A DNA stretch of 64,000 nt from Acidobacteriota bacterium (GCA_038040455.1 JBBPIH010000005.1:99614-163613); one strand, 5' to 3'. Counted from the stretch's first letter, positions 8,363-31,000 are shown. Numbers and translations are program-made. Notes: generated from the sequence alone by a model not told the origin.

Positions 8363-8375
8363 AGAGACTTCCTTG

Positions 8376-9664: not shown

Positions 9665-9734
9665 CTCTTTTTTTAACGGACAACTCCGCCCAAACAACGG
9701 AGACCAGTTAGACAAACCCTCGAAAGGAGATTTC

Positions 9735-10034: not shown

Positions 10035-10109
10035 AACTGAAACGGGCTAGAAAGCGCGCCAACGCCTCTAGCCCAAAACACCGACCTTCAACCACCAGGG
10101 AGAAAATCG

Positions 10110-13100: not shown

Positions 13101-14610
13101 AGACAACGGCGACCTCGCAAAGTACAACTTCGAGACTGAGGAAGGCAGAGCAGCGCTCGGTTTGTTATTTCGGTCTATCCTGTCGGGAAAAGCGCTACCT
13201 GGAATCGACAATCCGCGTCAGACGCTCAGAGACATGGGTTTGCTTGTCGAACGAGACGGAGTGGAGACGGTTCGAAAGGAAGATGAATACAATGTTCCTC
13301 GCTTCTTGAATCGAGTGCTCGCCCTGGATGTAGACCGACAGAATGCAATGTTTGATCATTACGCGAAGCTGTTTGACGAGATCGTAAGCTTTGCGAAGGC
13401 GAACGGAACCTTTGACGAAGGAGTCACCGACATCAAAGCGTTGTCAGTTCGTTTAGTCGACTCTAGCGTTGTGCATCGGGAACACTCAACAGGAGCCGAG
13501 ACCACACACTGCACGCTTGAAATCGACCAGCCTACTAAGAAGGTAAGCTTCACCGAGGCAGAAGAAGCGCACACAGGGAAAGGTGGCGCTTTATTCGAGC
13601 ACCTACGTAAAGGCTCATTCATTCTTGCGTTGGAGTCTGGCAGGCATACTGACCCGGCCACAGGTAGCACGTACTCCAACTTTGCGGTGTGGCGGCCAGA
13701 GGGCGCACGCATCAGTTACATTCGAGACGCGCAGCTAACCGAAACCTATCGACCGGTCGTACCAGAGAACGTGGGCGATTGGTGGACGGCAAAGTATGCG
13801 ACGATCCCCGATGTTCAGACCTCGAAGCTACACGTTATCGGCGGAGCGATAACCCCACTCTGGCAAAGCCTTAAGACAACCGAGGCAACCCACTTGCGCG
13901 TTGTAAGACTAACAACCGATGACGGCCAGCGCATTGTAGGAGTTCAGGTACCGAGCGACCACGTAGGAGAAATATTAGGCGCTCTGGGCGTTGCTCGGAC
14001 GTTGCGCGAGACGAATGAGATCTTCAACGCGGTATTAGACGACGGGGAAGAAATCGCGCTCACAGCGGGGCTCACGCTTAAACGCGGAGCCATTCACCGG
14101 GACCCTGTCATCGAGCTATCCGGCGCTCACCCAACTATGTTTGCAACTCTCAGAAAGCTTGGCTTAATAAACGAGCAGATAAGCTGGAAACAAAGATTCT
14201 TCGTCCCGATTGAGGAAGAGCGAGGCAATGCAGTCATAGCGGCTCTATTAGAGCAGTTCCCGGCTATCACGACTGACGATGACGAAAGAAACTGCGACGA
14301 ACGGCCCGACCTTGCTATGCCGTCTGCAAGCACTATGCTGCAGCCAATTGACCTGGAGAACTGGATCGTCGAAACAGCCGAGCCTCAACATAACAATGAC
14401 GCAGAGCAGGAACGCGTAGCAATCACGGAATGCGAAAGTGGCCCGACGAGTGATGAATCCGAACCAAGTTTCACACATCCGAGCCAGAGCGCATGTTTGC
14501 CAATTGCGCGTCAGGCAAGCGCGGCGGGCATGCTCCAGACTCTGCCACCGGACTACCGAACGGCAGCGGTTCAGATCGGTTTCAACTTCGCCGAAAGCGA
14601 GTCCACTTAG
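10110..14610 (+). CDS. Strawberry-notch-family DNA methylase-helicase, split by a frameshift near 11550
   Basis: LEPSAGTG and NPPF (MTase), GDGTGVGKGR (P-loop), DEAH, SATGA, QTFGRTHRS. ORFs 10110..11555 and 11521..14610 join as RRDL-NDLG if one T is removed from GACCTTTAAC. Confidence 0.85.
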
Positions 14611-14830
14611 GACTCGCTTTCACTCGACGCGCAGCAGATGCTTGCACGCTGCGAATCCCGCCCACCCACCCTCATGTCGATTAGCCGCTCACTGCGAACT
14701 AGCTTCCGCATGGGAAAAGCTTAGATCATTCTGTTGGAGTAAAGATGTGGGCCAACGATGATGTTACACGCGCGTCTTGAACCGCGGTGACAATGGTGGT
14801 AGAAATCCCGCGGACTCGCTGTGAGCCGCG

Positions 14831-14978
14831 CCTCGCAGGTTTATACGGAATCCGCATAAACCCGAAAGGGTCCGTCGGACGGTTGGCTTCTTGCGAGGAC
14901 AATTGACTTACCAGAATGCAGCATCCGGGTTTATACCGAAGGAAGCGCGGTCGTTGGGCTTATACGGATACCGTATGA
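14831..14978. repeat. Cluster of three GG(G)TTTATACGGA-like sites and nested hairpins
   Basis: GGTTTATACGGA-A-TCCGCATAAACC (14838-14862), GGGTTTATACCGA (14927), GGGCTTATACGGATACCGTATGA (14956-14978). Confidence 0.55.
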
Positions 14979-15259
14979 TCGGACGCTACCTTCAAATAGG
15001 TGCCTGTTCTCATGATTAACGTGCTAATTTTGGCAGACGGATCTTCCGCTGTTGATGAGATCTATACGATCCTCTCGTCGAGCGAATTTTGGAATTCCTT
15101 CGGCAGTGAGTTCCAGGCACAACCTTTCGTTGGGCCATTTCTGTCGTCCGACCTAGTTCTAGAGCCTGATTCGATACGCCAGTATTCAGCCTTGCTCCTG
15201 CTCGCTGGCTTTTGTCTCTTCCAGATAGTCCGATGTAACGGATCACTCTATACCGGAAT

Positions 15260-15485
15260 TCTCATTTGTGAAACACAGAAACCTCACGGTTCACACGTCG
15301 ATGGGTCGAATGACCCGCCTGACAAATGCTTCTCAAAGAAGTGGCGGACCCACAAGACTGCGTATGCGCTTTATTTCACACACCACAATTTCTGCCGAGT
15401 GCATTCATCGCCGAGAGTGACGCCAGCGATGGAAGCTCGTATAACGAACCACGTCTGGAGCTTGAATGAATCAGTCGCAGCCTAA
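15260..15485 (+). pseudogene. IS1-family transposase C-terminal remnant
   Basis: Across frameshifts reads ..LTVHTSMGRMTRLTN-FSKKW...ALYFTHHNFCRVHSSPRVTPAMEARITNHVWSL, the IS1 C-terminal signature. Confidence 0.75.
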
Positions 15486-15870
15486 ACGGGTGCTTTTCGT
15501 CTGCGTCGAGAACTCCAACCGCAGTCAAATGGCTGAAGCCTTCGCTCGAATGTATGGAGGCGACAAAGTAGAAGCCTACAGCGCGGGCTCCCGGCCCTCC
15601 GGCAAAGTGAATCTCAAGGCCATCGACGCAATGAAAGAGCTCGACTACGATCTTAGCAAACACGCTTCTAAATCTCTCACGGACATCCCTGATATTGAAT
15701 ATGACTTGGTTGCTACTATGGGATGCGGTGATCAGTGTCCCTTCGTTCGAGCAAAACGGCATGAGGACTGGGATATTCCTGACCCGAAAGACTTGGAACG
15801 TGATGAATTCCGCCAAATCCGAGATGCGATTGGAGCCAAGGTCAAAGCGGCCCTTTCAACACAAGATTAG
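15466..15870 (+). CDS. arsC: Arsenate reductase / LMW phosphotyrosine phosphatase family
   Basis: VLFVCVENSNRSQMAE, SAGS, TMGCGDQCP, DWDIPDPK. Confidence 0.85.
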   Translation: MNQSQPKRVLFVCVENSNRSQMAEAFARMYGGDKVEAYSAGSRPSGKVNLKAIDAMKELDYDLSKHASKSLTDIPDIEYDLVATMGCGDQCPFVRAKRHEDWDIPDPKDLERDEFRQIRDAIGAKVKAALSTQD

Positions 15871-15905
15871 GACCACCGGATTTTGAATTGGGATTTGCGA
15901 GTGTG

Positions 15906-16115
15906 TTAAGGATGCTGCTGGTCTTCAGCGTAGACTGACTCGGTCTTTTCGCAGCAAGGCATTATCATCTTCCCATCCCGCTCGGCCTCGTTCTTGACAT
16001 CGCCGCTAACATCGCTTTCCTTTCCGCACGATGGACAGGTAATGGAATAGCTGTCGGTATGGACGCCGTCTATTACGATTCGGCTGAATAGTATGCGCTT
16101 CATTCGCTCTGCCAT
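15906..16115 (-). CDS. Small hypothetical protein, possible zinc ribbon
   Basis: CPSC...PCC, 69 aa; divergent from the sigma gene. Confidence 0.4.
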   Translation of the reverse strand: MAERMKRILFSRIVIDGVHTDSYSITCPSCGKESDVSGDVKNEAERDGKMIMPCCEKTESVYAEDQQHP

Positions 16116-16218
16116 AGTCGACCCAGTTTACAACCAGCTTCAATCCCCAGCAACAGACATTAGGACGGTACCCAAATACAATTCCTTGACCCATCTAATC
16201 ACTTCCGGTATTTTTAGC

Positions 16219-16244
16219 GGCAAATCTTAGGCGCCTCACCGTCT
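16219..16244 (+). promoter_or_regulatory. Putative ECF promoter (variant copy) upstream of the sigma gene
   Basis: GGCAAAT-N11-CACCGTCT, same spacing as the three exact copies. Confidence 0.6.
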
Positions 16245-16510
16245 ATAACTATCGGGGACCTCACCACCCGCGAAGAGAGTAAGAATCGAATATCTCGCTT
16301 GCCCCGCTTGGTGGGATTATTTCGGTCTTTGCCGAGCAAGGGTTCAGTGGGCTCTGTTCATTTTTGGTATGGGACAGTCTGAAGCCATTGCGGTCGTTAA
16401 GTCACTCGCGCTCAATCGGGGCCAGTATACCTTTAGATCGCGAGCTACTTACCCGCTTTAGATCTTGTGCCTGACGGCTATGGGTTTCACGCTTTCGCCT
16501 CTGGGGGTCT

Positions 16511-17602
16511 ATGCCTTCTGACGTAACAGTCAATGACACTCTTCTGCAACCTTTCTTGATGGCGCAGGACTCTGCTGAGTCGCAGCGCCAGCTCTTGATT
16601 CTATTGTCTGAGCACGCGGAGGCGCGCATGAGGGGCATCATATTGGCCCGCCTCCGTTCCTACTTCACCAGTCAAGAGCACGCCGCGGATCCCGAGGATC
16701 TATACAGCGAGGCCAAAACACGATTGCTCACTTACCTGTTTGAGCTGAAGACGGGCCGGAGGACTGCTCCGTGCGAAGACTTTCGGGGGTACGTTGCGGC
16801 GATCGCTCACAATGCGTGCCACGACCACTTCCGCCAGATGTATCCAGCACGCACCCGACTCCACAAGAAGATTCGTGACCTGCTTCAAGCCCATCCGAAT
16901 TTTGCTTTGTGGAAATCTAAAGACCAAAACAAAGGTGAGTGGCTATGTGGGTTTCACTGCTGGCGGGGTCGAAGCAGTTCGTTTACATCAACTGCCTGGC
17001 TACGGCGTTTCTATGAGAACCCAGAGACTGTGATTGAAGCCCTTTCACCTGGTAGTGACATTCAGCTGATGGACATCGACGATCTGTTAGCTTCGATCTT
17101 CAAGGAAGTCGGGGTACCCATCGGCCTAACCGATGTGGTCAATGTCGTGGCTGATATCAGAGGCGTTAAGGACGCGCCGGTTGCGTCATTCGACGCGAAC
17201 GGGGCCAGCTTGAGTTTGCAACTCCCAGATTCAAAGCTTCGCGTCGATTCGGTGCTCGAAATGCGCGAGCCCTTGATGCGAATCTGGCAGGGCTTGCAAG
17301 AGCTACCTCACGATCAGTTGCGAGCCTATTTGCTATATGCACGGGATAGCTCAGGGGAAGACCTGATCAACCTGTGCCTGGCAGCAGAGATCGCAACCGA
17401 GTCGGAGATAGCATTGCACTTGAGGATGGGAATGGACCAGTTTCGAGATCTCCGGTTGAATAGGTTGCCGCTCGACAACGAAGGTATAAGTAAGGAACTA
17501 GGCGTGACCGTCGAACGCGTCTACAAGCTACGTTACCGGGCTGGCAAACGTTTGAAATCGCTTCTGTCTGAAATAATCCCACAAAAGAAATGGCCCATGT
17601 AG
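16511..17602 (+). CDS. ECF-like RNA polymerase sigma factor with long insertion between sigma2 and sigma4
   Basis: Sigma2-like EDLYSEAKTRLL...FRGYVAAIAHNACHDHFR; C-terminal HTH LDNEGISKELGVTVERVYKLRYRAGKRL; 363 aa; followed by an anti-sigma gene. Confidence 0.8.
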   Translation: MPSDVTVNDTLLQPFLMAQDSAESQRQLLILLSEHAEARMRGIILARLRSYFTSQEHAADPEDLYSEAKTRLLTYLFELKTGRRTAPCEDFRGYVAAIAHNACHDHFRQMYPARTRLHKKIRDLLQAHPNFALWKSKDQNKGEWLCGFHCWRGRSSSFTSTAWLRRFYENPETVIEALSPGSDIQLMDIDDLLASIFKEVGVPIGLTDVVNVVADIRGVKDAPVASFDANGASLSLQLPDSKLRVDSVLEMREPLMRIWQGLQELPHDQLRAYLLYARDSSGEDLINLCLAAEIATESEIALHLRMGMDQFRDLRLNRLPLDNEGISKELGVTVERVYKLRYRAGKRLKSLLSEIIPQKKWPM

Positions 17603-17627
17603 GAAGAATTCCTCTCTCTCACCGTCT
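17602..17627 (+). promoter_or_regulatory. Putative ECF promoter upstream of the anti-sigma gene
   Basis: GGAAGAA-TTCCTCTCTCT-CACCGTCT. Confidence 0.7.
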
Positions 17628-17678
17628 CATTATAGAGAACGGTATGTGGTCGTTTGTGACGCGCTTTGACTGGTACGT

Positions 17679-18947
17679 ATGCAGACACACCTGTCAACTG
17701 AAGAGATAAAGAGCTACCTCGGTCGCCGACTGACGCGCGGCGATTTCGATAGAGTAAGTGACCATGTGCATAGTTGTGGGAGCTGCTATGGGGACTTTCT
17801 CGCCGAACTACAAAAGCGGTTTCCTATTGAAATTGATCTGAATGAGCTCGCGGGGCTGCAAGGGTGGCATCTAGGGGACGAAGAGTTGGCGGCGTACGTA
17901 GAAGGCCGAATGGATGAGCTTGACTTTGAATGCGCCAGTCTCCACCTCCAAGAGTGCGGCTCGTGCATGGAGAAGGCATCAGCCGCTTCCGAGTATCCGC
18001 TCGAGTATACGGGCTTGAAACGACGCGCAAGCCGGAGAGAAGCATTGACTTGGAACCGATACATACCCGGCGTCCAGTCAATCTCAACGCCTCGCTTGCA
18101 ACTGGCCGCCGCTGCCGTATTGCTCGTTGCTTTGGCGCTGATCATATTGGCCCTGCTGCAACCGAGGTCTGAGAAACCCCAGCTTGCGGGAAGTCCACCG
18201 CCAGAGACGCGTTCGCCCGATCCCTCTCCCCATCAACCTACGGTGCCGGTTGATCCGGCTCCTCGCGCGGGGTCCGACAACCGTCAGAACGTTGACGAGC
18301 CGATGCCAGGGCAGATGGCTGCCACTGCACATTCGGAAAAGCATCGAGTCGGACGCCGAGAGGATGAGAAAGAGCGAGTGCTGATCGCCAGGGACCTGGT
18401 AATGCCGGCTGCCATCGAGATGCTTGACAGGACGCCGTCGATCGCGGTCCGCGGGAATCCCACCTCCATTCAATCCTTCTCGATCATTCGCCCTTTCACG
18501 ACGGTGATAAAAAATGATCTTCCGATATTCTGCTGGACCGCGTTGAACGGAGCCACAAGTTACACCATCTCGGTTTATGACGCAGATCTCCACCTGGTTA
18601 TCACGAGTGAGCCGCTTACTGAAACTCGGTGGGTGATTCAAGACCGTCTTAAAGCCGGAATGGTTTACACGTGGATGGTGACTGCGCTCAAGGACGGCAA
18701 AGAGATTATCGCGCCTGCGTCGCCCGCTCGTGCGGAGTTCAAGGTCCTTGGAAAGACTGATCGGCGTAAGCTGAATCGCATGGTCAGTGGAACTACATCG
18801 CACGCAGCGCGTGGAGTTCTCTATACAGAAGCCGGATTGCTGGACGAGGCCGAGAAGGAGTTTCAAGCACACTTGGAACTTCGGCCAGCCGACGAACGCG
18901 TAAAACGGTTGCTCCGGATCGTCAGGTCTTGGCGGTTTGTGTCGTGA
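17679..18947 (+). CDS. Transmembrane anti-sigma factor with two zf-HC2 (ZAS) domains
   Basis: HLS...HVHSCGSC and HLG...HLQECGSC; TM helix LAAAAVLLVALALIILALL; Pro-rich linker; beta-rich extracytoplasmic domain; TPR-like C-terminal helices. Confidence 0.8.
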   Translation: MQTHLSTEEIKSYLGRRLTRGDFDRVSDHVHSCGSCYGDFLAELQKRFPIEIDLNELAGLQGWHLGDEELAAYVEGRMDELDFECASLHLQECGSCMEKASAASEYPLEYTGLKRRASRREALTWNRYIPGVQSISTPRLQLAAAAVLLVALALIILALLQPRSEKPQLAGSPPPETRSPDPSPHQPTVPVDPAPRAGSDNRQNVDEPMPGQMAATAHSEKHRVGRREDEKERVLIARDLVMPAAIEMLDRTPSIAVRGNPTSIQSFSIIRPFTTVIKNDLPIFCWTALNGATSYTISVYDADLHLVITSEPLTETRWVIQDRLKAGMVYTWMVTALKDGKEIIAPASPARAEFKVLGKTDRRKLNRMVSGTTSHAARGVLYTEAGLLDEAEKEFQAHLELRPADERVKRLLRIVRSWRFVS

Positions 18948-19194
18948 TTCCTCAAGATCTACCTGCCCTTAGTCTCTCAACGATAATAAACTGTCCTATG
19001 TCGGCTTCGGTAAGAACCTTCCCGCTAGGCTGAAACTCACAACAAGGGCGCTGTTCCCGCAACCAAGCGCAGAGTACCATTGGGAATTGGAGTTCTTATT
19101 CCAACAGGGAGTAGCAGTGGAATCTATCTGGAAAACAGATAGGCATGAGTTAGGCCCACCTGCGATGATGAGACATGCTCAAAGGACATTTGCA

Positions 19195-20556
19195 ATGAAA
19201 CCATATCGAATTCACTTAGCTTTCTTTGCTCTGCTAGTGGCAATTGTGCCAGCGCTTTCGTCACAGGAAAAGACTGTTACCCTAAAGGTTGAAATCGGCC
19301 CGAATGTGCGTGTCAGCGACCGCGGTGCTTCACACGTTGAACCCTATATCGCTGCCCATCCGCAGGACCCGAGAAATCTGATTATTGTGGCTTCACATAA
19401 CGTCGAAGGTAAGGGCATTCTCGCAGAGGCGTTCTTCACGACGGATGCGGGTAAGACCTGGGGCGCCTCCCGCTTGCCTCAACTGCAAGAGGCACTCCTA
19501 GCCAACAAGCTTAAAACGGCTATTGACGATTGGGTAACGTACGCGCCAGATGGTGTGGCATACATCTCGACCTTGGCTGATATGGAGGTTCAAGACCGGC
19601 GGCCAGATCAAATACTTGTCTATCGTTCTGAGGATCAAGGCAAAACCTGGCAAGGTCCGACAGTGATTCCACCCCAAGGTAGCTTTGATCGTCCCTTGAT
19701 GCTTGCGACAGGGACCAAAAACAACAAGCGTATTTATTTGGTAGCCAGTGACCGCGGAGGCTTTGCCGTTTTGAGGTCCGACGATGGCGGGCTTTCCTTT
19801 AAGCCTACCGCGTTTATCGAGCCTGACAATCTTGCTCATCAACCTAAGAATCCACTTCTTTTACCAGATGGGTCACTCCTTGTTCCTTATAATGATTACC
19901 CCTATATCAGTGTCAAGGAGCTTGAGGAGATGCGCCGTGATCCACGGCAACGACGATTGAATTCGTCCAGAATCTATGTCGTGCGGTCACGGGATGGCGG
20001 TCTGACCTTCGACACGCCGCAATTCGTCGCAGACATCCCACGAATGATTCCCGACGGTCTCGAAATGGCCGTCGATCTCTCGAACAGCAGATTCCGGGGT
20101 CGGATCTACGCCGCCTGGAATGGCGAGCGCGGGGATAGCCGCAACATGACAATCGCTTACTCGGCAGATGCCGGCAAGAGATGGTTGAAATCTGCGTTCT
20201 TTCGGGCAGATAACGTGGGTCCTGCCTTTTTCCCCACTTTAGCCGTGTCTCCTGATGGTGCAGTGGGTGTGAGCTGGCTTCAACACGAAAAAGGCGAGGA
20301 GAAATCGCACTGTTACCGGATCTACTTCGCAGCTTCAATTGATGGAGGAGAAACTTTCACACCGCCCCGAGTCGTCTCCGAGACGGTTTCTTGCCCAAGC
20401 AGTGAATCAAATAGAGAAACCATCGATAGATGGTCGCGGGGTGGCGACTATATGGGTCTAGCGGCGGCGGCAGACGGGAGCTTTCACCCGGTGTGGATTG
20501 ATGCTCGTGATGGAGCGTTCCAAGTCTACAGCGCGCGCATCCAGTTGGGAAAATGA
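19195..20556 (+). CDS. Exported BNR/Asp-box repeat (sialidase-like beta-propeller) protein
   Basis: Signal peptide from M at 19195 (AAGGA RBS); six Asp-boxes (TTDAGKTW, SEDQGKTW, SDDGGLSF, SRDGGLTF, SADAGKRW, SIDGGETF). Confidence 0.85.
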   Translation: MKPYRIHLAFFALLVAIVPALSSQEKTVTLKVEIGPNVRVSDRGASHVEPYIAAHPQDPRNLIIVASHNVEGKGILAEAFFTTDAGKTWGASRLPQLQEALLANKLKTAIDDWVTYAPDGVAYISTLADMEVQDRRPDQILVYRSEDQGKTWQGPTVIPPQGSFDRPLMLATGTKNNKRIYLVASDRGGFAVLRSDDGGLSFKPTAFIEPDNLAHQPKNPLLLPDGSLLVPYNDYPYISVKELEEMRRDPRQRRLNSSRIYVVRSRDGGLTFDTPQFVADIPRMIPDGLEMAVDLSNSRFRGRIYAAWNGERGDSRNMTIAYSADAGKRWLKSAFFRADNVGPAFFPTLAVSPDGAVGVSWLQHEKGEEKSHCYRIYFAASIDGGETFTPPRVVSETVSCPSSESNRETIDRWSRGGDYMGLAAAADGSFHPVWIDARDGAFQVYSARIQLGK

Positions 20557-20717
20557 GGGCACTTAGTGTCTAAGATAATGACGAATTCCGCGAGCTTTGA
20601 GATGCTTGAGTCAGATGGACGGAACCTTTAAAGTTCGGTTCTTAGGACGCGCGGCAGTGGTAACATCGCCTGCTACCGAGCCAGTGCCGATTCCACTATG
20701 AGAGGCTCTAACGATCG

Positions 20718-21521
20718 ATGCATCCATCGGAGAATTTGGCCGCAGAATACTCAACCAAGGCAGCAGCGTACGCGCAGCACTGGGTCCCAGTAATTCGTCC
20801 AATGGGCCAGCATCTGCTTCAGGCGTTGCCGCTCGCTTCGGCACGCCAAGTTCTCGACATTGGTACTGGTACTGGAGCACTCCTTCCTGACCTTGGTGCG
20901 GGCGCACCTGATGCGAGCATTGTCGGTATGGATCGCGCCGAGGGAATGCTCCGGATCGCGCAACGCGGCACTAATCACCCATTAGCGGTAATGGATGCAC
21001 AGCGGCTGGCCCTGCGGTCCGAGACAATCGATGTGGCAGTGCTGGTGTTCATGCTTTTCCATTTGCCCGATGTATTGGCGGCACTCAACGAGGTCCACAG
21101 GGTATTGCGCGCAGGCGGGGCGGTGGGGATCGTCACCTGGGGCGAGGACCCGGGCGTGCCGGGTTTGTCGATCTGGATAGAAGAACTCGACGCGCACGGG
21201 GCGGCACCCGACTCTCGGGATCCCAGCGTGATGCAACAAGCTCAGATGGATACGCCGAAGAAACTGTCGGGGCTGCTGCAAGCGGCGGGCTATACCTCGG
21301 TGAGGGTGTGGAACAAGACTTTTCAGCATTGCTGGACAGTGGAGCACCTCTTGGAGTTGCAACTTTGTTGCTGCATGCCTGGTCGGCGCTTGATAAGCTT
21401 GCCGACATCGTTAAGGGCAGCTTGTCGATCACGAGCAGAGGCGCGCCTTGCTCGGCTCACCCCGGAGGAACTTGTGTACGAACCTGAAGTCTTGTTTGCG
21501 GTTGCGCACCGGCTGGCTTAA
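20718..21521 (+). CDS. Class I SAM-dependent methyltransferase
   Basis: [27 protein letters not shown]. Confidence 0.85.
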
Positions 21522-21602
21522 CTCGGTTGTTAGCCTGCGCGAGCATCGGAACGCTCACAGTGGGGCCCCGGTAGTCTCATTTGAGATCGACAGTTTGATA
21601 AT

Positions 21603-24602
21603 CTAAACTCCGCCGTCTCCCACCATGACGAAGCCGGCCCAGTAATAGGGCTTTAATCGGAATTGTGGTTCCTTAATCATCTGGAGAGCCGCCTGCCGAA
21701 GCGCCTCAGCCTTGGGTACTCTCTTCGCGTTTTCGTGAAAGGCAACCACTAGCCTGGCGGTGGTGTTGGATGGAACGGCCCATTGACTTGCTACAGTCGC
21801 AGGGACGCCAGCCACGAACAGCGCCCAGGTCATCCCTATCATCCCTTCGCCGGCACCAACCCGGCCCCTTGCGGTATCACAAGCCGAGAGCACGGCTAGT
21901 TCAGCCTTGAGGTCCATCTCCATCAACTCCCAGGCTTCAAGAAGCCCGTCCTCCTTTGAGTCGATGCTCGGTGCAAGAACGATGTACGAATAAAGCGGAT
22001 TCTGATTATCCAATACTCCGTGAGTTGCGAAGTGAAGCACTCTGTATCTACCTATCTCCGACTTTACAATCTCTTCCCGAGCAGCCGCACCAATGCGAAC
22101 TACAGTTGCCTGCGACCCGTACACTTCAGACGCAAGAGTCTCCACCTCTTTCTCCGTTTCTGGGAGCGGAACAAAAGGCGTATTCCGCAGTGTCTGCGCG
22201 CGTGCCAGCGCTTCGCCACCCAACGCGGGATTCGCAACAGCGTACAGCTGCGGTGTTTGAGCTTTCGATAACGAGGAATTGCCGTTCTGTTCGCTCTTGC
22301 TCAGAGGCAGTGATCGCAAGCTATCAGACCTTTTCCTCATTTCGCGAAGAACTTGAAGGGACGGAGCATAGTATATCGCGTACAGCTCCAACAGGTACTG
22401 ATCTCTGGCGTTCTGTAGCGCCTGGAAAGGAAGATTCCAGAGCGTATCATCAGGAACAATGCATACCGTATTCTTGTTGTTTAGAAACGGCTCCGCTGGT
22501 TTGATTAATAGATCATAAAGATCGAGACCGGTCTGCCTGAAGCCTGGATGATTCGTTGACAGTAGGTTCCGAAACCTCTCCACCAGAGCGGACAACGCGC
22601 TTTTCTTAATATCCATAGAGCAGACGCCGACGTTTACTTTGGCCCGAGTTGTTGAATCCCTAGTCAATACAAACAAAAATGTTCTTTCGTCTGTTACCAC
22701 GTATTCCAGAACTGTCGTCCGGGTATCTGATAGAAGCTCGCTCGCATCTTCTATAGTAAACGCGGGGAAGAGACCCCGTTTAGCTTTCAACTCCGGGTGT
22801 ACTGCGTACAGAGCTGCTTGCAATGCTTCATATGCGTTGCGGGCCTTTTGTAATCGATTCGCGAGTTCTTCTATTCGCGTTTCGTCTGGCAGCTGACGCA
22901 TCCTCTCGCCGCGAACCTGAGCATTGAGAGAAACCATTTCGCTGTACAGTTTCCGCTCTTCCGACTGCTCTCTTTGACTCAGCGACTTGTTAACGTCTAT
23001 CCGACCGTTACGGAAGACATCCAGCAACACACGTCCCTTCGCCCGCTCAGCGTACTTAAGGGCCTCTTCTGCTTTGCCTTGCTGGATGAGCATCGATACC
23101 ATTTCGAGGTAAGGAGAGATTCTATTCTCAAAGAAGAGTTGTTGCTCTTTCTCCGCACCTGCAATTTGATCTCGCATATGCTCAACTGCTTCGATTCCCT
23201 GTACGAAAGATTCGGACGCAAGCCCCTCTTCCTTTTGCGCGCGATAAGCCTTACCTTTGAGCGTTAGAGCTAAGTAATTCAGTAGGGGCGAGCGAAGTTG
23301 TCTTGCCAGGTCAGCCGCGCTACTAGCCGCAGCGCTTGATCCAGCGTAGTCACCTTGTGAATAGAACACCTGCCCTTTGCGCCAAAGAAGTTCCGTTATG
23401 CGAATCTTGTCCCCGACTGTTTGAGCGAGCGACAATGCCTTATCAAACCAAGCCGACGCTCTCGCATAATTGGCCTGCGCCTGGTACACGGACCCCAACC
23501 CCTCCTGGGCAGCGATGATTATTTCAACGGCGTCGATCTCCTCGGCCCTCTTAAGACTATCCTGAAATTCCTTTGAAGCGACTACGTACTTTCCTTGTCT
23601 GTAGTTTATTACCCCGATGTTCAAGAGGTTCCTTGCGATCTCTCGCCTATTGTTAGCCTGCATGTAGATTTTCAGACTTTGATTCACGAATTCAGAAGCC
23701 TTCAAATAATCGCCCTGTTCGATATATAAGACAGCCAGGTCGTTAAGCACGGCCGCCGTTCTGCCCTTATCGATCAATGTCTTTGCTGTATCCATTGCTT
23801 GAGACAAATAGTTTAGCGCCTGGAGATGATCACCCTTGACCTGGTACACATGACCGATCTCCGTCAAAGCATCCGCTAGGTTGCCGGCAGACCAGAAGCC
23901 GCGCTGCAGCAGTTGCTTCCACAAAGCAAGCGACCTTTTGAGATTATCAAGCGCACCGTCGTAATCGCCTTTCCACTTGGCTACCTGGCCAAGATTCGAC
24001 CACGCAATCGCAACCCCATATTCGTCGGGCAATGCACCGGCAGGCTCATTAATATTCTTTAGTGACGTCGCGCGAGCAATACTCTCCAATGAGTATTGCT
24101 CAGCCTTCAGGTAATCCGCCGCGTAAATGTGGAGCGTTCCCAGTTCACTCAGAACATAGATAAGGTCTCTGCGTGAACCAACTTCTTCGAATGCTGCTTT
24201 GCTTTGGAGGTATTCTTCTATCGCTAGTTTGATGTTGTCCTGCTCAAAATGAATGCGTCCAACCTTGTAAAGGACACGTGCGAGAACCTTCTTATCCTGT
24301 AGCTGTGCCGCCGTTGCCTTTCCGACTTCACAAAGGAACATCAATCTGGCTCTATCGCTTAGAGAGGAGGGCATAATCGCCGCCTGCAGCAAGGAATCGC
24401 AAAGTCGCGGCGTCACAAGCTCCTTGTTACCTCGCAATAACGATGAAGCCGTGAATTCATCACCTGTCTTCATCGACAGCAGCGCTGCAAGCAATTCGTC
24501 TTCGGTCCTGACCGTCTGAGTGCTCGTTGATTGAGAAAATGAGGCAATAGGTAGAAGAACAAGAAGGACAACACAAAGAAGTCGAACGGGCCTGGATAAC
24601 AT
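21603..24602 (-). CDS. Exported TPR-CHAT (caspase-like) cysteine protease
   Basis: Likely start at 24602 gives signal peptide MLSRPVRLLCVVLLVLLPIASFSQ. About 10 TPRs, AERAKGRVLLD, IVPDDTLWNLPF, HFATHG (His), LSACDT (Cys), PYYWAGF. Confidence 0.9.
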   Translation of the reverse strand: MLSRPVRLLCVVLLVLLPIASFSQSTSTQTVRTEDELLAALLSMKTGDEFTASSLLRGNKELVTPRLCDSLLQAAIMPSSLSDRARLMFLCEVGKATAAQLQDKKVLARVLYKVGRIHFEQDNIKLAIEEYLQSKAAFEEVGSRRDLIYVLSELGTLHIYAADYLKAEQYSLESIARATSLKNINEPAGALPDEYGVAIAWSNLGQVAKWKGDYDGALDNLKRSLALWKQLLQRGFWSAGNLADALTEIGHVYQVKGDHLQALNYLSQAMDTAKTLIDKGRTAAVLNDLAVLYIEQGDYLKASEFVNQSLKIYMQANNRREIARNLLNIGVINYRQGKYVVASKEFQDSLKRAEEIDAVEIIIAAQEGLGSVYQAQANYARASAWFDKALSLAQTVGDKIRITELLWRKGQVFYSQGDYAGSSAAASSAADLARQLRSPLLNYLALTLKGKAYRAQKEEGLASESFVQGIEAVEHMRDQIAGAEKEQQLFFENRISPYLEMVSMLIQQGKAEEALKYAERAKGRVLLDVFRNGRIDVNKSLSQREQSEERKLYSEMVSLNAQVRGERMRQLPDETRIEELANRLQKARNAYEALQAALYAVHPELKAKRGLFPAFTIEDASELLSDTRTTVLEYVVTDERTFLFVLTRDSTTRAKVNVGVCSMDIKKSALSALVERFRNLLSTNHPGFRQTGLDLYDLLIKPAEPFLNNKNTVCIVPDDTLWNLPFQALQNARDQYLLELYAIYYAPSLQVLREMRKRSDSLRSLPLSKSEQNGNSSLSKAQTPQLYAVANPALGGEALARAQTLRNTPFVPLPETEKEVETLASEVYGSQATVVRIGAAAREEIVKSEIGRYRVLHFATHGVLDNQNPLYSYIVLAPSIDSKEDGLLEAWELMEMDLKAELAVLSACDTARGRVGAGEGMIGMTWALFVAGVPATVASQWAVPSNTTARLVVAFHENAKRVPKAEALRQAALQMIKEPQFRLKPYYWAGFVMVGDGGV

Positions 24603-24705
24603 GGTTGGTTTGCCCGGAAAGAAATCAGACTTGAGTGAACGGTAAGGGGAAAGCAATGCTCTCCCCTCACCGAAGACAGTCATATTGTCTCGCACCCTGG
24701 TGCGC

Positions 24706-24900
24706 TCACCACAATTTACGTAGCGCGGCGGCTACGAGGGCCGCTAACTGTGCGAGTGTGAGGGATGCGCTTCCACTTGATTGTGAGTTAGAGGTATTCT
24801 GCGGCCCGCCATTCTCGGCACGAACGGCTGTCGGCTGGAAGAAAAGCCCAACTGTCAAAATGATAGCCAGGCTCAGCAGGATGGATCTGACTTTCTTCAT
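24706..24900 (-). CDS. Small secreted peptide (64 aa) upstream of the CHAT protease
   Basis: AAGGAG RBS; signal peptide ending AVRA; predicted 36-aa mature ENGGPQNTSNSQSSGSASLTLAQLAALVAAALRKLW. Confidence 0.75.
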   Translation of the reverse strand: MKKVRSILLSLAIILTVGLFFQPTAVRAENGGPQNTSNSQSSGSASLTLAQLAALVAAALRKLW

Positions 24901-25154
24901 GGCATCTCCTTAAGTGATCGGGATTTCAACACCGCTTGATAACGGCTTTCACATCGTGAGGCGACGTTGGTCAATCTGGCTTTTGCTGATGCGTCAGCTA
25001 ATAAATGAAGGCGGCGTTGCAAGGGTCTATTGTTCTTGAGGGGCTAGTGACTTTGAATAGATCCCTTACCCAACAACCGCATACTCAAATTGTAAAAACA
25101 ACCAGTTCATAGGGCTTCCGGTGTAGCTACTGGATCGGTACAAACTTCCACTGT

Positions 25155-27110
25155 TTACGGAGCCTGTTTCAGCAAATGCTCCTGTACAAATTGCGCGATC
25201 GCGTAGAGTCTGAAATCCCGGTTCGGTTTCTTGCTCCAGTCATGACCTTCATCTTTTGCTAAGAGGTACCAGATTGGAGCTCCATTCTTCTTTGCGGCCG
25301 CGACCATTTGCTGGCCTTCCGTAGCCGGAACCCGCGGATCGTTCTTTCCTTGAATAATGAAAAGGGGCTTCTTGATTTTGTCGGCTCTATTTGCCGGTGC
25401 GGTTCGCTCTAAGAACTCTCGAATCTTTGGATCGCGCTCGTCTCCGAACTCCACCCGCTGCAAATCTCGCCTCCAACCTGCAGTGTTCTCAATAAAGGTC
25501 ACGAGATTCGATGGTCCCGAATCCGATATGGCGGCACGAATACGTTCGCTGTAGTTCGTCGCCACTGAAAGCGCCATGTAACCGCCATAGCTGGCGCCTT
25601 GGACCATGACTCGATCAGCGTCGAGATCGCCTTGCGTCTTAATCCAATCGAACAGAGCACCGATATCTTTCCAGGCGTTCATTCGGAGCACGCCGTTGTC
25701 GAGTTTATGAAAGCTCTTGCCGTAGCCCAACGAGCCGCGCACGTTTGGAAAAATGAGAACTATTCCAAGCTCATTCAGGAAATAGTTGTTGTGATATCCG
25801 AACTCCGGTCGATACTGTTCTTCGGGACCTCCGTGAATATTGATAATAACGGGTCGCTTGCCAGTGAAGGTCGCAGGCGGTCGATAGAGGAAGCCAGATA
25901 TCATCTTGCCATCGAAGCTTTTCCAACTGATCTGCCGTGGTTCGGGCAGCTTGTCCAAATCGATTCCACCAGTTACACCCTTGTACCAGTGGTCGAGGTT
26001 ACCGGTATTCGTGTCAACTGAGTACACATCATTTGGAGTACGCCGCGATCTGAAATTGAAAGCCAGGTCAACTGAGTTAGTGTGCCATTGGAGATCCGCG
26101 ATGACGCCTGCCGGCAAAGCGGGAGCGACTTTCTCCTTGCCAGTCTTCGTGTCAAGGATATGAAGTCGAGAAGCGCCATCCTGGTTAGTGACAAACGCTA
26201 AGGTTTTCCCATCTGGCGAGAGTCTCAACTCCTCGACATCCCACCTGATGTGATCCGAAAGATACTTGTACTGCTTTGTTGTAAGGTCCAGATATGCGAG
26301 ACGCCGAAAATCTGAATCACGGTCCGTAACGACGTAGACCCCACTACCATCTTTGCTGAATTGCGGATAGTCGTAATACTCGTCCGGTTTTCCCTTCTTT
26401 GGACTCAGAAGAGTCTTCTCTCCAGTTGACACATCGATTATCCAAAGAGCGCTTACTGTGTTTGAAGCAAAGTCACAAAAGACAGCCCTATGGTCATCGG
26501 CTGACCAGTCATAGGCTTTCAAGTAGTTACCTTTGCCCGCCGCCAGCAAGCGCACCGTTTTCGGATCTAGCGGGTTGATAACAGACAGGTCCACGCCATT
26601 CCCATTTGGCGGCGACGAGCTAAAGATTATTCTGTCACCTCGATTGGACCAGACCGGCTCGGTATTTCTCGACTTCCCATCTGTGATCAACGTGCTTTTG
26701 CGCGTCGAGATGTCAAAAAGATAAAACTGAAAGAAATCGTTGCCATCAGTGTGTTTGTTATAGACAAGGTATTTCGACTGCGGTTGGTAGTACACATCGT
26801 ACACACCTGTGGGAACAAACATTGAAATACCCGGGGCGCTCCCTGGTGCTGCTGTCCGCAGAATCCATGTTTCGCTCGCCGCAAGGTTCTTGAGCAACAC
26901 TTCGCGCTTAGTCTCATCCCAACCTGCGAGCCGAAATCCGTAAGCGTTTGTATAGCGGTTAACCGTTTGAGCTAGAGAGGCCGATATCTTCGGAATGCCT
27001 TCTGCGATGAGATTATCTCCTGGAACAATCTCGGCATTGTTGGCGTTTTGCCCCAGGACGCAATTCCCTGCAAGCGCCAGGACCGCCAGGATTGTAGTAA
27101 GCCTCTTCAT
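25155..27110 (-). CDS. Exported S9-family peptidase (prolyl oligopeptidase/acylaminoacyl peptidase)
   Basis: Signal peptide; beta-propeller repeats; IHGGP, PNVRGS, GASYGG (Ser), NDPRV (Asp), EGH (His). Confidence 0.92.
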   Translation of the reverse strand: MKRLTTILAVLALAGNCVLGQNANNAEIVPGDNLIAEGIPKISASLAQTVNRYTNAYGFRLAGWDETKREVLLKNLAASETWILRTAAPGSAPGISMFVPTGVYDVYYQPQSKYLVYNKHTDGNDFFQFYLFDISTRKSTLITDGKSRNTEPVWSNRGDRIIFSSSPPNGNGVDLSVINPLDPKTVRLLAAGKGNYLKAYDWSADDHRAVFCDFASNTVSALWIIDVSTGEKTLLSPKKGKPDEYYDYPQFSKDGSGVYVVTDRDSDFRRLAYLDLTTKQYKYLSDHIRWDVEELRLSPDGKTLAFVTNQDGASRLHILDTKTGKEKVAPALPAGVIADLQWHTNSVDLAFNFRSRRTPNDVYSVDTNTGNLDHWYKGVTGGIDLDKLPEPRQISWKSFDGKMISGFLYRPPATFTGKRPVIINIHGGPEEQYRPEFGYHNNYFLNELGIVLIFPNVRGSLGYGKSFHKLDNGVLRMNAWKDIGALFDWIKTQGDLDADRVMVQGASYGGYMALSVATNYSERIRAAISDSGPSNLVTFIENTAGWRRDLQRVEFGDERDPKIREFLERTAPANRADKIKKPLFIIQGKNDPRVPATEGQQMVAAAKKNGAPIWYLLAKDEGHDWSKKPNRDFRLYAIAQFVQEHLLKQAP

Positions 27111-27162
27111 GTGACTATTAAGCTATCAGGTTCTCCCGAGAGTCGTCGTTTACGTGTATTAA

Positions 27163-27188
27163 AGACGGTGACGATCGCGAGTTCTTCC
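27163..27188 (-). promoter_or_regulatory. Putative ECF promoter upstream of the S9 peptidase
   Basis: Minus strand GGAAGAA-CTCGCGATCGT-CACCGTCT, 52 bp before the ATG. Confidence 0.7.
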
Positions 27189-27413
27189 ACCCGTAATAAG
27201 ATTTTTTCGCGATGCAGCATAACTGTCAACTCTGCGACTTATATACGTCAGCAATGGGACCTCTCTCATCGCCCCTGCTAGATACCCCTAGAGTGAGGGC
27301 TATGCAGGCTTATTGCTGATGTCCCGGCATCTATCGTCGGCGACAACAGCCAACACCGAACATAAGAGTCCGACCAGAACGGCTCATCTAAAATCGCGAT
27401 CACAAGGGCTGAC

Positions 27414-27439
27414 GGAAGAATCGCTTGTCGCCACCGTCT
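27414..27439 (+). promoter_or_regulatory. Putative ECF promoter, divergent from the S9 promoter
   Basis: GGAAGAA-TCGCTTGTCGC-CACCGTCT. Confidence 0.7.
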
Positions 27440-27609
27440 TCATAATGTGGGCGAGGGACAAAGCGGTTCTCACTTCTCTTCATTCGTTCCCACGTTTGGA
27501 GAGAATAGAGATCGCGAAAGCAAATCCCGCGCTCGGCAAAGAATGACACATCCGTATTCATGGGTCCTGGCCTTGACGATGAACGATTTCTGGACCAGGA
27601 GGCATACCG

Positions 27610-27846
27610 ATGCGCAAGCGCACCGAGACCACACATAAAGCAACACGAACAATCACCATGCCTGATGAGGTTGACCTGACCACCTATAACTCGCTCGATG
27701 TTTCCTTTATGGATGGCAAGGGAAACGAGATCCTGAACCTTCAATTTCGCCGCGATGCGGACACGTTGCCCCAGTTGGCTATCAACGTAATCGGTCCGAA
27801 TGGCGACGTGATTAGCGCCCTCACTTTATTCGATCTGGAAGTATGA
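27610..27846 (+). CDS. Small hypothetical protein (78 aa)
   Basis: AGGAGG RBS 7 nt before the ATG; downstream of the promoter motif at 27414. Confidence 0.55.
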   Translation: MRKRTETTHKATRTITMPDEVDLTTYNSLDVSFMDGKGNEILNLQFRRDADTLPQLAINVIGPNGDVISALTLFDLEV

Positions 27847-28061
27847 CTGATTGCTTTGACTCGACCTAGCTGCGCCCGACTCGTAACTAGGGTAGTTTCT
27901 CGAAACTCAATTACTAGGGCTAAGCTGAATGACGTCGCATACGCGACGATGGGATCATCCGTGTCGTGCGCAAATCATGTTCGAATCGGAGCTTTGAAGA
28001 TGAAGGGAGAATCGGAAAGATGTTGTGTCCAACTGTGTACGCGCTCACCCGAACTTTTCGG

Positions 28062-31000
28062 TCAATGAAGCGACGTATCAAGCATAAACGCAGCGACCCT
28101 TATGTCTCCCACCGATAAATCTACTGCTTGTTCGCTATACCTTTGTTGAGCTTTTTCCATGGTGATTCTTGGAGCGACCTGTTTCCGATAGTCACTACCG
28201 TCCCATTGATCGCAATTAAACCAGCCCACAAGGTAGAGACCATGTTTGCACTTGTTATCCTGAAGGTAACGATCAACCAGTTGAGTCTTCATCGAATCAT
28301 CGAGATCTCGATTCCAGCAACCTTTTGTCTCTATTATCACGGTAGCAACGCCAAACGGCTCTTCCTGCATGTTGCCTGAAAGAGTGACCGCATTGACGTG
28401 AATGTCGGTTCGCTCCCCGCGATGGATTCTTACCTCTCTATTGATGACTATGCCCCTTTCGGTGAGGTCACGCTCCAATTCTCTTTTTACATAATCAGCC
28501 AAATGGTTCTCATCCTTGGGCCGAGAGACTCGTCTCCGATGTATGCGTCCAACCTCTGATCGCATCGGCTTATCAGAACTGTTGCCGCCGTCCGGCAAGT
28601 CGTTCCATAGGTCGCTAACAGCAGGGGTCTCTCCTTGAAGTCTTGTCTGCAGCCGAGTTAGCGATTCAATCACGACATCCAAGAGTTGCTGCGAGTTCTG
28701 AACGAGCCGATTATCGGTGTTACTAACTAGATTCAAAATGTATTCGGGTGATACGGGCATCCAAGTCTGCCGTCGCGCTGTATCCCAAGCTTCGCGTAGC
28801 TGCCACTTCATCCAGTCTAGCTCCGGGCAAGCATGTGCGATTCGCTGCATTCCGTGGCACGCCTCCAAAGTACCTCTCTGACGCAACTCAACCAGCACTG
28901 CGTCTCGAAGGGAACCGAGTCCACCAATTACCTCGCCAAAGAAACCATAGGAAGAGCTGGAAGGAGAGTATGGGTAGCGTCGCACGAGCCAGAGATATAG
29001 ATCGACTAATTCGTCGACGGCTAATTCGTGGAGCAGCCGCTTCGCCCTTCGGTCATTATTAGTGATGCGGCCGATGACCTCATCCCCGAACGATGGATCC
29101 GATTGCATTTGCTTCCAGACTACTCGTCGCCCGTGAATTTCACCGTGCACAGCTAGCGTGATGCCGATGACTATACCTCGCTCTCTTTCATCGTCAATCT
29201 TCGGCACTGACGAAACCGTCAACCAATTGAGATCTTGTTCTGGTGTTTCCAGCTCTATAGTGGGTCTCGCCTCAAGCGTGGCGATGATCTCCTCCGCGAA
29301 AGCCCGAGCCGACAAGCTATCGTGATCAAGAAGGTGCGCAAGTATATGGCTTGTCGTCGTAGGCTTGAGATGCTGCTCCTTAAGCTTAACGGTTAGTGAG
29401 TCGGCCAACCTTTGACTCCAACAGCACTCCACGCGACGCAACGGACAATGGTTGTGGTCCAACGCAAAGCTCGTCGCATCGATTACCACTGACTCAGACA
29501 CTTGATTTGCCAGCTTAACTAGCTTCTGATTCAATTCCCATCCATCATCTCTCAGGGGAAATAGGAGAATGACAGGTAGCCACTCTCTCCACCGGTCAGC
29601 GCCAAGCTTTGCCAGTTCTGTCGGAGACTCTTTCAGCAACAACACAAGAGCCTTGTAACCCGCCCAGGAGTCGAGAAAGATGAGCGAATCGCCTGCGATC
29701 CACCGACTCGTATCATCGCCGCAATAATGCAGGTAATCATGAGCGATTGCTATCAATCGTTGCTTCGTAGCGCCGTCCGCAGCTTTCCACCCTGGTAATT
29801 GAGTTATGTCGGCCTGATACTCGTCGCCCCAATGAACGCTAGTCGGCTCAAGGGCTAGTAACCGGCAGATCTGCCACCATCTAACAGGTTGCCCCGACTC
29901 GCAAATGTCTAAAAGAGTCAGAATCTGCTCGTGAGGTGGAGGACTGAGTACTGGTGGATTCCTTTCCTGCTGCTCAACTGTCAATTGGTGGGTATACTCC
30001 TCCCGCATGCTCCGTGCTACTTCCGAATCTAATTGAATTGGGCCGAAAAACCACCGTAATTCAACAGCCAAAGCTTTGCTCTCTTGTATCGCTCGATACA
30101 TAGTGTCAACGTGATCCGGGTCGCGCCAATCGAATACTCTGCTAAGCATACGGGCAAGAGTCGTATGTAGTATACCGGTTGCAGTTTGCAGCTTTTCTGC
30201 CATCCAGTGCAGATCCAATTGGGACAAGAAGGTGTTCTTGGACGTGGCCAGCCAGCGAAAATCCGTATTTTCATCCGTTACTGAGTTCAATAGAGCGTCC
30301 AACACTAGTCGCCGTCTTTCTTGATTTTCAAGCACGTGTTCACTCATCGACCGCCGACCAGGCCCAAACAGTCCGCGAAACGAATTATTGTCGTCGACGA
30401 TGTCGTCGAAGAATACAAGCCTGGAACGAACAGCCCGCGCGAATGATTCGATCAAGCCAGGAAGCTCTAAATTCCTCCAACCCTTAAGCATGATCTCATC
30501 AATCAAATTGCAGCAGTCGTATGACAGGTCTCGGCGGGGTTGTTGAGACTCAACCCACCGCAACGCGACGGGCAGATCGATGGGCTTCAACTTTTTCACG
30601 AGCTCATATCGAAGGAAGTATTCATAGCTGCCGCTGTAGGATTCACGGTGCACAGGCGCGAGGACTTCAAATAACGCCTGCGCACTCGGGCTATCGGGCC
30701 AGATTGCTTGAAGCGCGTAGCCCTTCAAATCCTGGTCGGGGTCCTCAGAAATATCGGCCTCAATCAGCGGCTCCAATCTTCTTTTAGTTTCGTTGTCTCC
30801 AATACGAAGCACAGCAGACGCCGCGTTAACGCGAATGCCATATGAATCAGCCCGATCAAGCGCAATATCGGCTAATTCGTTCTGAAGTTCTTTGACATCG
30901 CAGGCTTCAGCAATATCAGCAGCCGCTCGCCGACAGATTATTCCTCGCTCTTTATCTTCGAGGTACGGCAGCAGCTGGCACGCCAAACCATCGTACTTAA

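Follow-up and report, generated by a model that had tools for sequence, protein, structure and literature searches.

In the RseA/DegS/RseP/sigmaE pathway, a single-pass anti-sigma factor receives a site-1 cut in the periplasm and is then cut at site 2 by an M50 protease. Here we describe a locus at positions 16,219 to 27,846 of a 64,000-nucleotide stretch from an Acidobacteriota bacterium (GCA_038040455.1 JBBPIH010000005.1:99614-163613; this whole stretch is termed the window). The locus encodes an extracytoplasmic function (ECF)-like sigma factor, a single-pass transmembrane anti-sigma factor and a separate exported protease of the TPR-CHAT type. As in the RseA pathway, the anti-sigma factor is single-pass and an M50 protease is encoded in the genome; unlike DegS, which is a PDZ serine protease, the presumed site-1 protease here is a caspase-like cysteine protease encoded beside its substrate.

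The closest described system is DdvA/DdvS of Myxococcus xanthus. DdvA is a transmembrane zinc-type anti-sigma factor whose periplasmic part is itself TPR-CHAT; its authors proposed autoproteolysis by CHAT in the linker, followed by RseP and release of the sigma factor, and according to their paper proteins like DdvA occur solely in Myxococcota and one Comamonas (PMC11506125). The proteins of the window resemble DdvA/DdvS in having a zinc-type N-terminal anti-sigma domain, one transmembrane helix, a long flexible linker and a TPR-CHAT with a His/Cys dyad that is predicted to be periplasmic, and the order that we propose (CHAT cut, RseP, sigma release) is the same. They differ in that the TPR-CHAT is a separate exported protein rather than part of a single DdvA-type polypeptide, the two genes lying on opposite strands; in that the anti-sigma factor has two anti-sigma domains in tandem and ends in an Fn3-like/TPR-like domain; and in that the sigma factor, unlike DdvS, carries a 135-residue insert. 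Moreover, the family here is acidobacterial, and the top four genome matches of its promoter motif are all local, with none at the neighbouring defence genes. In a search with one query, which is weak evidence as to fused forms, no protein of 740-2110 aa matched the anti-sigma ectodomain.

In the type III-E craspase, the components are Cas7-11, the TPR-CHAT protease Csx29, Csx30 and RpoE (PMC10028731). The locus shares with it a TPR-CHAT protease whose cut, which here would fall on the anti-sigma factor, frees a sigma factor from its inhibitor; the craspase is cytoplasmic, RNA-guided and CRISPR-linked, whereas the CHAT protein here carries a signal peptide. The initial annotation of this DNA had proposed a CRISPR-independent, extracytoplasmic version of that system. 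The analogy to protease-controlled sigma release is supported, but such a version is not without precedent, DdvA being already known (PMC11506125). A Csx29-type craspase was rejected as a candidate: the NF041237 score was 19.4 bits against a cut-off of 300, the protein has a signal peptide, and no CRISPR-like array was found in the window, nor any cas family among the open reading frames (ORFs) scanned. ECF54 of Actinobacteria has CHAT, subtilase and carboxypeptidase genes nearby, proteolysis is proposed as its control, and it is described as having no anti-sigma factor (PMC8999054). The present sigma factor likewise has CHAT in a conserved gene context, but with a conserved transmembrane anti-sigma factor, in another phylum and with another sigma architecture. 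The CalpL/CalpT/CalpS system consists of a SAVED-Lon protease, an anti-sigma factor and a sigma factor of the ECF-like kind, and is cytoplasmic and activated by cyclic oligoadenylate; the three-part logic of protease, anti-sigma and sigma is the same, the protease being of Lon type there and CHAT here. In full-text searches of the literature, supplementary lists aside, we found no description of a CHAT protease that is exported as a protein of its own and has a transmembrane anti-sigma factor as its partner, and 'CHAT' is not mentioned in the main text of the ECF re-classification (PMC7826278).

Our reading is that the locus is a split form of DdvA/DdvS, a three-protein trans-envelope module in which a soluble periplasmic CHAT protease would clip the anti-sigma factor. 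We give this reading a probability of roughly 0.5.

Sigma factor, anti-sigma factor and CHAT protease form a conserved gene set

The span from 16,219 to 27,846 holds nine ORFs, in which plus-strand genes converge with minus-strand genes. The genes of the central set are:

16511-17602 (+), ECF-like sigma factor, 363 aa (NCBIfam TIGR02937)
17679-18947 (+), single-pass anti-sigma factor, 422 aa (two HxxxCxxC motifs, one transmembrane helix)
21603-24602 (-) from ATG, in an ORF that reaches a GTG at 24695, TPR-CHAT exported protease (Pfam CHAT, E 3.5e-71)

ORF and domain calls confirmed the gene set listed in the initial annotation, a sigma factor and transmembrane anti-sigma factor converging on an S9 peptidase, a 64-aa peptide and an exported TPR-CHAT protease. 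The conserved core is the sigma factor, the anti-sigma factor and CHAT only. Full-length relatives of the sigma factor were present in 27 of 41 related genomes. In 20 loci around sigma relatives, the anti-sigma gene nearly always followed the sigma gene, and CHAT was found in 14 of the 20 fetched stretches. A scan of one genome per species revealed at least 470 sigma relatives, and synteny was counted in the best 80 of the 470, almost all labelled Blastocatellia, Pyrinomonadaceae or Acidobacteriota. This survey of co-occurrence, which the initial annotation had proposed, bore out the three genes as a set: a CHAT gene lay within 1.5 kb of the sigma/anti-sigma pair in 57 of the 80 loci (46 convergent directly after the anti-sigma gene; on the same strand, 1 downstream and 5 upstream; and a further 5 upstream and divergent). 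Among the other loci, CHAT was 2-5 kb away in 4 and missing in 3 that were fully assessable, and 16 contigs were too short to judge. The 20-locus and 80-locus sets have some loci in common, and related genomes do not count as independent. Among 401 sampled genomes of the phylum, the sigma factor was matched at E 1e-20 or better in 25, of which 13 were outside the class Blastocatellia; CHAT was adjacent to the pair in 7 of 15 out-of-class loci.

The link between the three genes is specific, because the genome of the window has 13 matches to the CHAT model but no paralogues of the sigma or anti-sigma factor (tblastn, which gave none for the 64-aa peptide either), and because a sigma or anti-sigma domain was found at none of 6 other CHAT loci, among 41 neighbouring ORFs scanned of 77 called. 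Pairwise distances of CHAT and anti-sigma proteins were correlated (r 0.62-0.71; 0 of 2000 permutations reached r), to a degree equal to that between halves of one protein. Several genomes contain 2-6 sigma paralogues, and the module seems to duplicate as a unit. On one contig (L088, positions 1-17623; L numbers are our labels for relatives' loci), two full sigma/anti-sigma/CHAT sets were observed within 18 kb.

The anti-sigma ectodomain is predicted to sit on the CHAT domain

The CHAT protease has 999 aa when read from the ATG at 24602 and 1030 aa when read from the GTG at 24695. It belongs to the CHAT family (PF12770), and its catalytic dyad is His861/Cys908 in the 999-aa numbering (His892/Cys939 in the 1030-aa ORF). 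Both residues were invariant in 45 of 45 CHAT homologues, in agreement with the intact His/Cys pair noted earlier. The predicted export of the protein, also claimed in the initial annotation, agrees with its signal-peptide-like start; by a simple hydrophobicity rule of our own, such an N-terminus was present in 46 of 51 homologues. In many homologues (L033, L036, L039, L042, L050 and others), the signal peptide is directly followed by a conserved 'ALRALAExFFAAYxKKD'-type stretch, which the CHAT of the window lacks; by eye, we take this stretch to resemble NTF2/SnoaL-like domains.

The anti-sigma factor begins with tandem zinc-type domains, whose ligands (H4/H29/C33/C36 and H64/H89/C93/C96) were invariant in 45 of 45 homologues; two HxxxCxxC motifs were present in 67 of 67. 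Each of the two domains has the HxxxCxxC motif and the upstream His ligand of class I zinc-binding anti-sigma (ZAS) domains. The best sequence match of the anti-sigma profile in the PDB was the DdvA anti-sigma domain (8rlz_A, E 1.1e-4), followed by RslA, ChrR and RsiW. Beyond the zinc domains, the structural model predicts a transmembrane helix (138-159), a disordered Pro-rich linker (160-222), an Fn3-like sandwich (269-356) and a four-helix, TPR-like C-terminal tail (aa 359-419). Fold matches were the MtxA C-terminal domain (E 9e-7) and Fn3 domains. The segment just before the Fn3-like domain (aa 255-259) is conserved, being GxLMG in most homologues. This predicted topology, with one transmembrane helix and the zinc-type domains N-terminal to it, agrees with the extracytoplasmic C-terminus assigned in the initial annotation.

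Prediction of a complex between CHAT residues 200-999 and anti-sigma residues 223-422, with a 45-row alignment for each, gave ipSAE scores of 0.67, 0.65 and 0.65, and the best of 3 controls scored 0.00. Contacts agreed by at least 94%, and the partner predicted local distance difference test (pLDDT) values were at least 81. Of 80 solved complexes, 58 attained the ipSAE mark, as did 2 of 110 mismatched pairs; these counts apply here only approximately, since the alignments were our own. The scores express the confidence of a model and are not measurements. The interface comprises residues 682-690, 734, 942-946 and 979-986 of CHAT, a surface beside the invariant residues W941, V943, P985 and W988, and residues 248, 255-259, 298-306, 331, 333, 344 and 348-351 of the anti-sigma factor. 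In the prediction, the Fn3-like sandwich and the segment that precedes it thus sit on the CHAT domain. Modelling of this pair, another earlier suggestion, passes its controls, and with the synteny and the invariant dyad it supports a functional link of the sigma factor, the anti-sigma factor and the exported TPR-CHAT protease.

The sigma factor is ECF-like and carries a folded insert

The 363-aa sigma factor passed the TIGR02937 sigma70-ECF model narrowly (E 1.3e-11; 44.4 bits against a cut-off of 42.9; aa 45-351), and Pfam Sigma70_r2 remained under its cut-off. An AlphaFold model (pLDDT 78) contains sigma2 (~aa 8-110), a folded insert (~aa 112-220) and sigma4 (~aa 250-357). In VIA-align comparisons with ECF chains, sigma2 and sigma4 gave overall Z 8.2-8.8 and root-mean-square deviation (rmsd) 1.9-2.5; the sigma2 of SigC was matched with Z 8.4 and rmsd 2.5 over 79 aligned residues, and region 4 of sigmaE with Z 8.8 and rmsd 2.5 over 69. 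Foldseek gave no match to the model at E 0.001 or better. About 135 extra residues separate sigma2 from sigma4, with pLDDT ~80-90, and the insert was kept in 20 of 20 aligned relatives. The protein has the sigma2 and sigma4 domains of ECF (group 4) sigma factors but not their short-linker architecture (~170-200 aa in total); because of the folded insert in the model, it is ECF-like and not a textbook ECF. Within the insert, the profile of aa 177-223 (~17039-17179) weakly matched the delta subunit of RNA polymerase in its N-terminal domain (2krc_A, E 0.005); no other clue to the insert was obtained, and this one is too weak to name the fold.

Proposed switch

The conserved gene set, the export and topology as predicted, the invariance of the dyad, the shared promoters described below and the predicted CHAT:ectodomain interface were all computed; cleavage of the anti-sigma factor by CHAT, the direction of signal flow, the site-2 step and the nature of the cue are inferences. 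At rest, the anti-sigma factor would hold the ECF-like sigma factor at the membrane through its tandem zinc-type domains in the cytoplasm, and its periplasmic Fn3-like/TPR-like domain would be docked on the CHAT domain of the separately exported protease. A periplasmic cue, read by the TPR or the N-terminal region of the protease, would activate CHAT to cut the anti-sigma factor between the membrane and the Fn3-like domain (site 1), and an RseP-type intramembrane protease would then free the sigma factor (site 2). The freed sigma factor would transcribe the anti-sigma gene, as a reset, together with neighbouring genes for exported proteins. In this genome, its targets would be the sigma gene itself, the S9 gene (perhaps with the peptide and CHAT genes behind it) and a 78-aa ORF. 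The parts of regulated intramembrane proteolysis seen here are the predicted interface and a 467-aa M50 (RseP-like) protease encoded elsewhere in the genome.

Several points weigh against this scheme. In the clade of the window, CHAT lies downstream of a sigma-type promoter and could equally be an output there. The sigma/anti-sigma pair occurs without a nearby CHAT in the 3 assessable loci and in about half of the out-of-class loci, so the pair can exist without CHAT, or CHAT is encoded elsewhere. Shared ancestry by itself would also be expected to produce the correlation of CHAT and anti-sigma distances. The predicted complex contains the protease in truncated form (residues 200-999), without its N-terminal 200 residues. 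Finally, CHAT autoproteolysis in DdvA is itself presented as a proposal and not a demonstration (PMC11506125).

CHAT might also be a binding partner of the anti-sigma ectodomain, an RseB-like protein or ligand sensor, and not its protease. It would then shield the anti-sigma factor from another site-1 protease or expose it to one, and its own proteolysis would be aimed at other periplasmic or foreign proteins. RseB acting on RseA offers a comparison. The predicted interface, in which the Fn3-like sandwich rests on CHAT domain to domain and no peptide enters a groove, fits such a role, as do promoters that drive exported hydrolases and surface proteins, which could be CHAT substrates. However, the conserved segment before the Fn3-like domain also touches CHAT in the model, the catalytic dyad is invariant, and DdvA is a precedent for the cleavage model. 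We regard a non-cleaving CHAT as unlikely.

Promoters and the likely regulon

Four copies of the motif GG[AC]A[AG]A[AT]-N11-CACCGTCT were found at the locus, each intergenic and facing a gene:

16219-16244 (+), P1, GGCAAAT-N11-CACCGTCT, facing the sigma gene ~270 nt upstream of it
17602-17627 (+), P2, GGAAGAA-N11-CACCGTCT, in the sigma/anti-sigma gap, facing the anti-sigma gene
27163-27188 (-), P3, GGAAGAA-N11-CACCGTCT, facing the S9 gene, with the top position weight matrix (PWM) score of 40.0
27414-27439 (+), P4, GGAAGAA-N11-CACCGTCT, facing the 78-aa ORF
27610-27846 (+), the 78-aa ORF, divergent from S9, with no signal peptide by eye

Thus the statement that four transcription units share one promoter motif was right. 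The window contains the sequence TCACCGTCT 3 times where 0.43 copies would be expected, and in 0 of 100 shuffles was a count of 3 reached. When the 7.1-Mb genome was scanned with a PWM built from 17 sites of five genomes, a training set that included the four locus sites, these four came out on top (28.9-40.0 bits), the next best site scoring 20.5. The sites hold their position in four related genomes: the motif columns of P1 are invariant in the 5-genome alignment, P3 is conserved in L013-L016, and P4 has an equivalent in L016 and, with a 12-nt spacer, in L015. The 78-aa ORF had no Pfam match; tblastn matches to it lay beside S9 in L015 (55%) and L016 (41%), and it is probably a fourth sigma-dependent unit. 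By eye, a sigma-70-like TTGACC-N17-TATTTT is located just upstream of P1. In the ~270-nt leader of the sigma gene after P1 (16260-16510, +), an invariant GGGGACCTCAC box was observed ~10 nt past the -10 element in all five genomes; Rfam gave no match to it.

The promoter of the wider family, TGGTAATAT-N14-CnTCTTA, differs from the motif of the window. In 53 of 63 loci, this promoter lay in the sigma/anti-sigma gap and faced the anti-sigma gene. Seven of 53 sites (L063, L066, L073, L077, L079, L084 and L087) were dropped by eye as misaligned before the second wider-family PWM was built. k-mer enrichment upstream of sigma genes revealed no clear motif. In the region upstream of CHAT, where sites were accepted at a PWM score of 10 or more, the promoter was directed away from the CHAT gene in 26 of 49 loci and faced it in 5. 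The 95th percentile of random windows was 4.4, and the 99th percentile of 25.2 was inflated because the random windows held true sites. It is accordingly plausible in the clade of the window only that the sigma factor induces its whole module, as pictured in the initial annotation.

The genes faced by the wider-family promoter (38 scanned) are a changing set, mostly with signal peptides. Among them are proteases (two subtilases and a trypsin-like one), four outer-membrane barrels, proteins of the CARDB, FG-GAP and propeller types, one GH3 enzyme and one DsbA/SurA protein, besides a few regulators; many others belong to no known family. The regulon of the sigma factor appears to be local and very small, and the exported proteins in it change from one lineage to another.

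These data bear on whether CHAT is merely a member of that regulon, an exported effector protease switched on by the sigma factor, its adjacency reflecting co-regulation. In the clade of the window, the S9, peptide and CHAT genes succeed one another on one strand downstream of P3, uninterrupted by any terminator-like site, and in L051, L053 and L064 a palindromic promoter faces both ways. Yet a sigma-type promoter faces CHAT in only a small minority of wider-family loci; a comparison of 28-nt windows upstream of sigma and of CHAT gave 17.8 matches of 28 against 18.3 for the reverse-strand control, and hence no similarity above that control; the genes behind the promoters vary by locus, whereas CHAT is constant; and the predicted CHAT:anti-sigma complex passes its controls. 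As a constant neighbour that usually lacks the promoter of the sigma factor, CHAT fits an input component better than an output, and we think it quite improbable that it is a regulon member alone.

In the subclade L051/L053/L063/L064 (~15750-16035 in each), CHAT and a divergent gene for an outer-membrane barrel are separated by a sigma-type promoter that forms an almost perfect palindrome, GTAATAAGCCG ... CGGCTTATTAC. Either strand of it scores as a promoter, so that it may drive the genes on both sides.

S9 peptidase and the 64-aa peptide

Two further minus-strand genes lie upstream of CHAT:

24706-24900 (-), 64-aa signal-peptide ORF (AAGGAG ribosome-binding site before its ATG)
25155-27110 (-), S9 peptidase of the prolyl-oligopeptidase family, exported (Pfam Peptidase_S9, E 9.2e-35)

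Translations read by eye have signal-peptide-like starts in all three minus-strand products (S9, the 64-aa ORF and CHAT). The S9 protein belongs to the Peptidase S9 family, with matches to PF00326 (E 9.2e-35) and to the beta-propeller PF02897 (E 4.4e-11). Its translation contains GASYGG, NDPRV and EGHD, presumably the Ser-Asp-His triad motifs of the family. The mature part of the 64-aa peptide spans ~36 aa, contains a conserved motif, GPQNTS.SQS.G, and has Trp at its C terminus. No sigma-type site lies directly before the peptide or CHAT gene in the window. Because no terminator-like site was found on the minus strand between S9 and CHAT, a single S9-peptide-CHAT transcript is possible, of which S9 may be the first gene.

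The initial annotation had made the peptide and S9 parts of the system, and on this point the survey did not agree with it. S9 was at the locus in 4 of the 20 relatives' loci, with orthologues only in L013-L016. The peptide was found in the window and in two relatives' loci only, L013 (78%) and L016 (48%), and L014 and L015 have an unrelated small secreted ORF at its position. A small signal-peptide-like ORF upstream of CHAT, the other mark of co-occurrence that had been suggested, was present in 4 of 49 wider-family loci, none convincing. Judged by these matches, the peptide is specific to the lineage of the window. The S9 slot elsewhere holds other exported-protein genes behind sigma-type promoters, so S9 has the appearance of an output rather than an input, and it is probably a sigma-dependent output. 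Gating by the peptide and S9 is not supported as a general feature and is at most a clade-specific add-on. The model in which the secreted peptide, trimmed by S9, is the ligand that gates TPR-CHAT can claim a head-to-tail order of S9, peptide and CHAT, a credible peptide gene (ribosome-binding site, signal peptide and conserved mature motif) and some small secreted ORF between S9 and CHAT in all five genomes of the clade, but it deserves little credence, given that the slot holds two unrelated peptide families, that S9 and the peptide were not found at the locus outside the clade, where so few loci have any small ORF upstream of CHAT, and that, as with the variable cargo genes of other loci, a sigma-type promoter of its own precedes S9.

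Other genes of the locus and its surroundings

The anti-sigma and CHAT genes of the window are separated by two genes that were absent from the initial annotation:

19087-20556 (+), BNR/sialidase-like exported protein (Pfam)
20718-21521 (+), S-adenosylmethionine (SAM) methyltransferase (Pfam)

In none of the 20 relatives' loci did tblastn place either gene in the interval from anti-sigma to CHAT, and they were therefore treated as an insertion outside the system. One weak methyltransferase match, in L029, was positioned beyond CHAT. Rfam gave no match at E 0.1 or better in 15800-28200. With PADLOC, the sigma factor, anti-sigma factor, S9 and 78-aa ORF had no match, and CHAT matched only a TPR model.

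Upstream of the module is a type I restriction-modification system (region 1717-7376 and 10110-14610, +), with a fused HsdM/HsdS-like gene and then HsdR. HsdR is followed by a Strawberry-notch-like helicase that is apparently split into two overlapping ORFs: 10110-11555, which covers AAA_34 model positions 1-109 and also matches PADLOC mad2, and 11521-14610, which covers positions 110-305 and Helicase_C_4. On the other side, a 1252-aa ORF (28062-31820, -) matched the NCBIfam NACHT antiphage model EruA (E 4e-57; 194 bits, the cut-off being 1000; aa 15-590 of the protein aligned with model positions 154-713) and also HyoA (E 5.8e-29), with no match in Pfam or PADLOC. As the EruA match begins at model position 154, its N-terminus may be missing or its start miscalled. 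With restriction-modification, helicase and NACHT genes around it, the module sits in a defence-island-like stretch. Further downstream (35561-47339, +) lie a sigma-54 activator gene and then extracellular contractile injection system (eCIS) genes (tail sheath, T4-type baseplate, Pvc16_N, AAA ATPase and eCIS core domain); the promoter motif of the module was not found at these genes.

Implications

Beyond this locus, switches of the DdvA type in split form may be widespread in the Acidobacteriota (at least 470 relatives of the sigma factor); in them, soluble CHAT in the periplasm would be the dedicated trans-acting site-1 protease of a tandem-zinc anti-sigma factor, and an insert-bearing sigma factor would drive a small local set of exported proteins swapped between lineages. 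We advance this generalization tentatively. The family is unusual in three respects: its zinc anti-sigma domain is doubled, a large insert separates sigma2 from sigma4, and a promoter stands before the anti-sigma gene rather than the sigma gene. In DdvA, the proposed cutting step cannot easily be set apart from the remainder of the fusion protein. Because protease and substrate are two proteins here, binding, cleavage and the cue can each be tested with purified parts. The host bacteria are abundant soil organisms whose signalling has been little studied. If the reading is true, the module would be the first example of a trans-acting CHAT protease in regulated intramembrane proteolysis, and it would represent a modular wiring of one envelope sensor to different secreted outputs.

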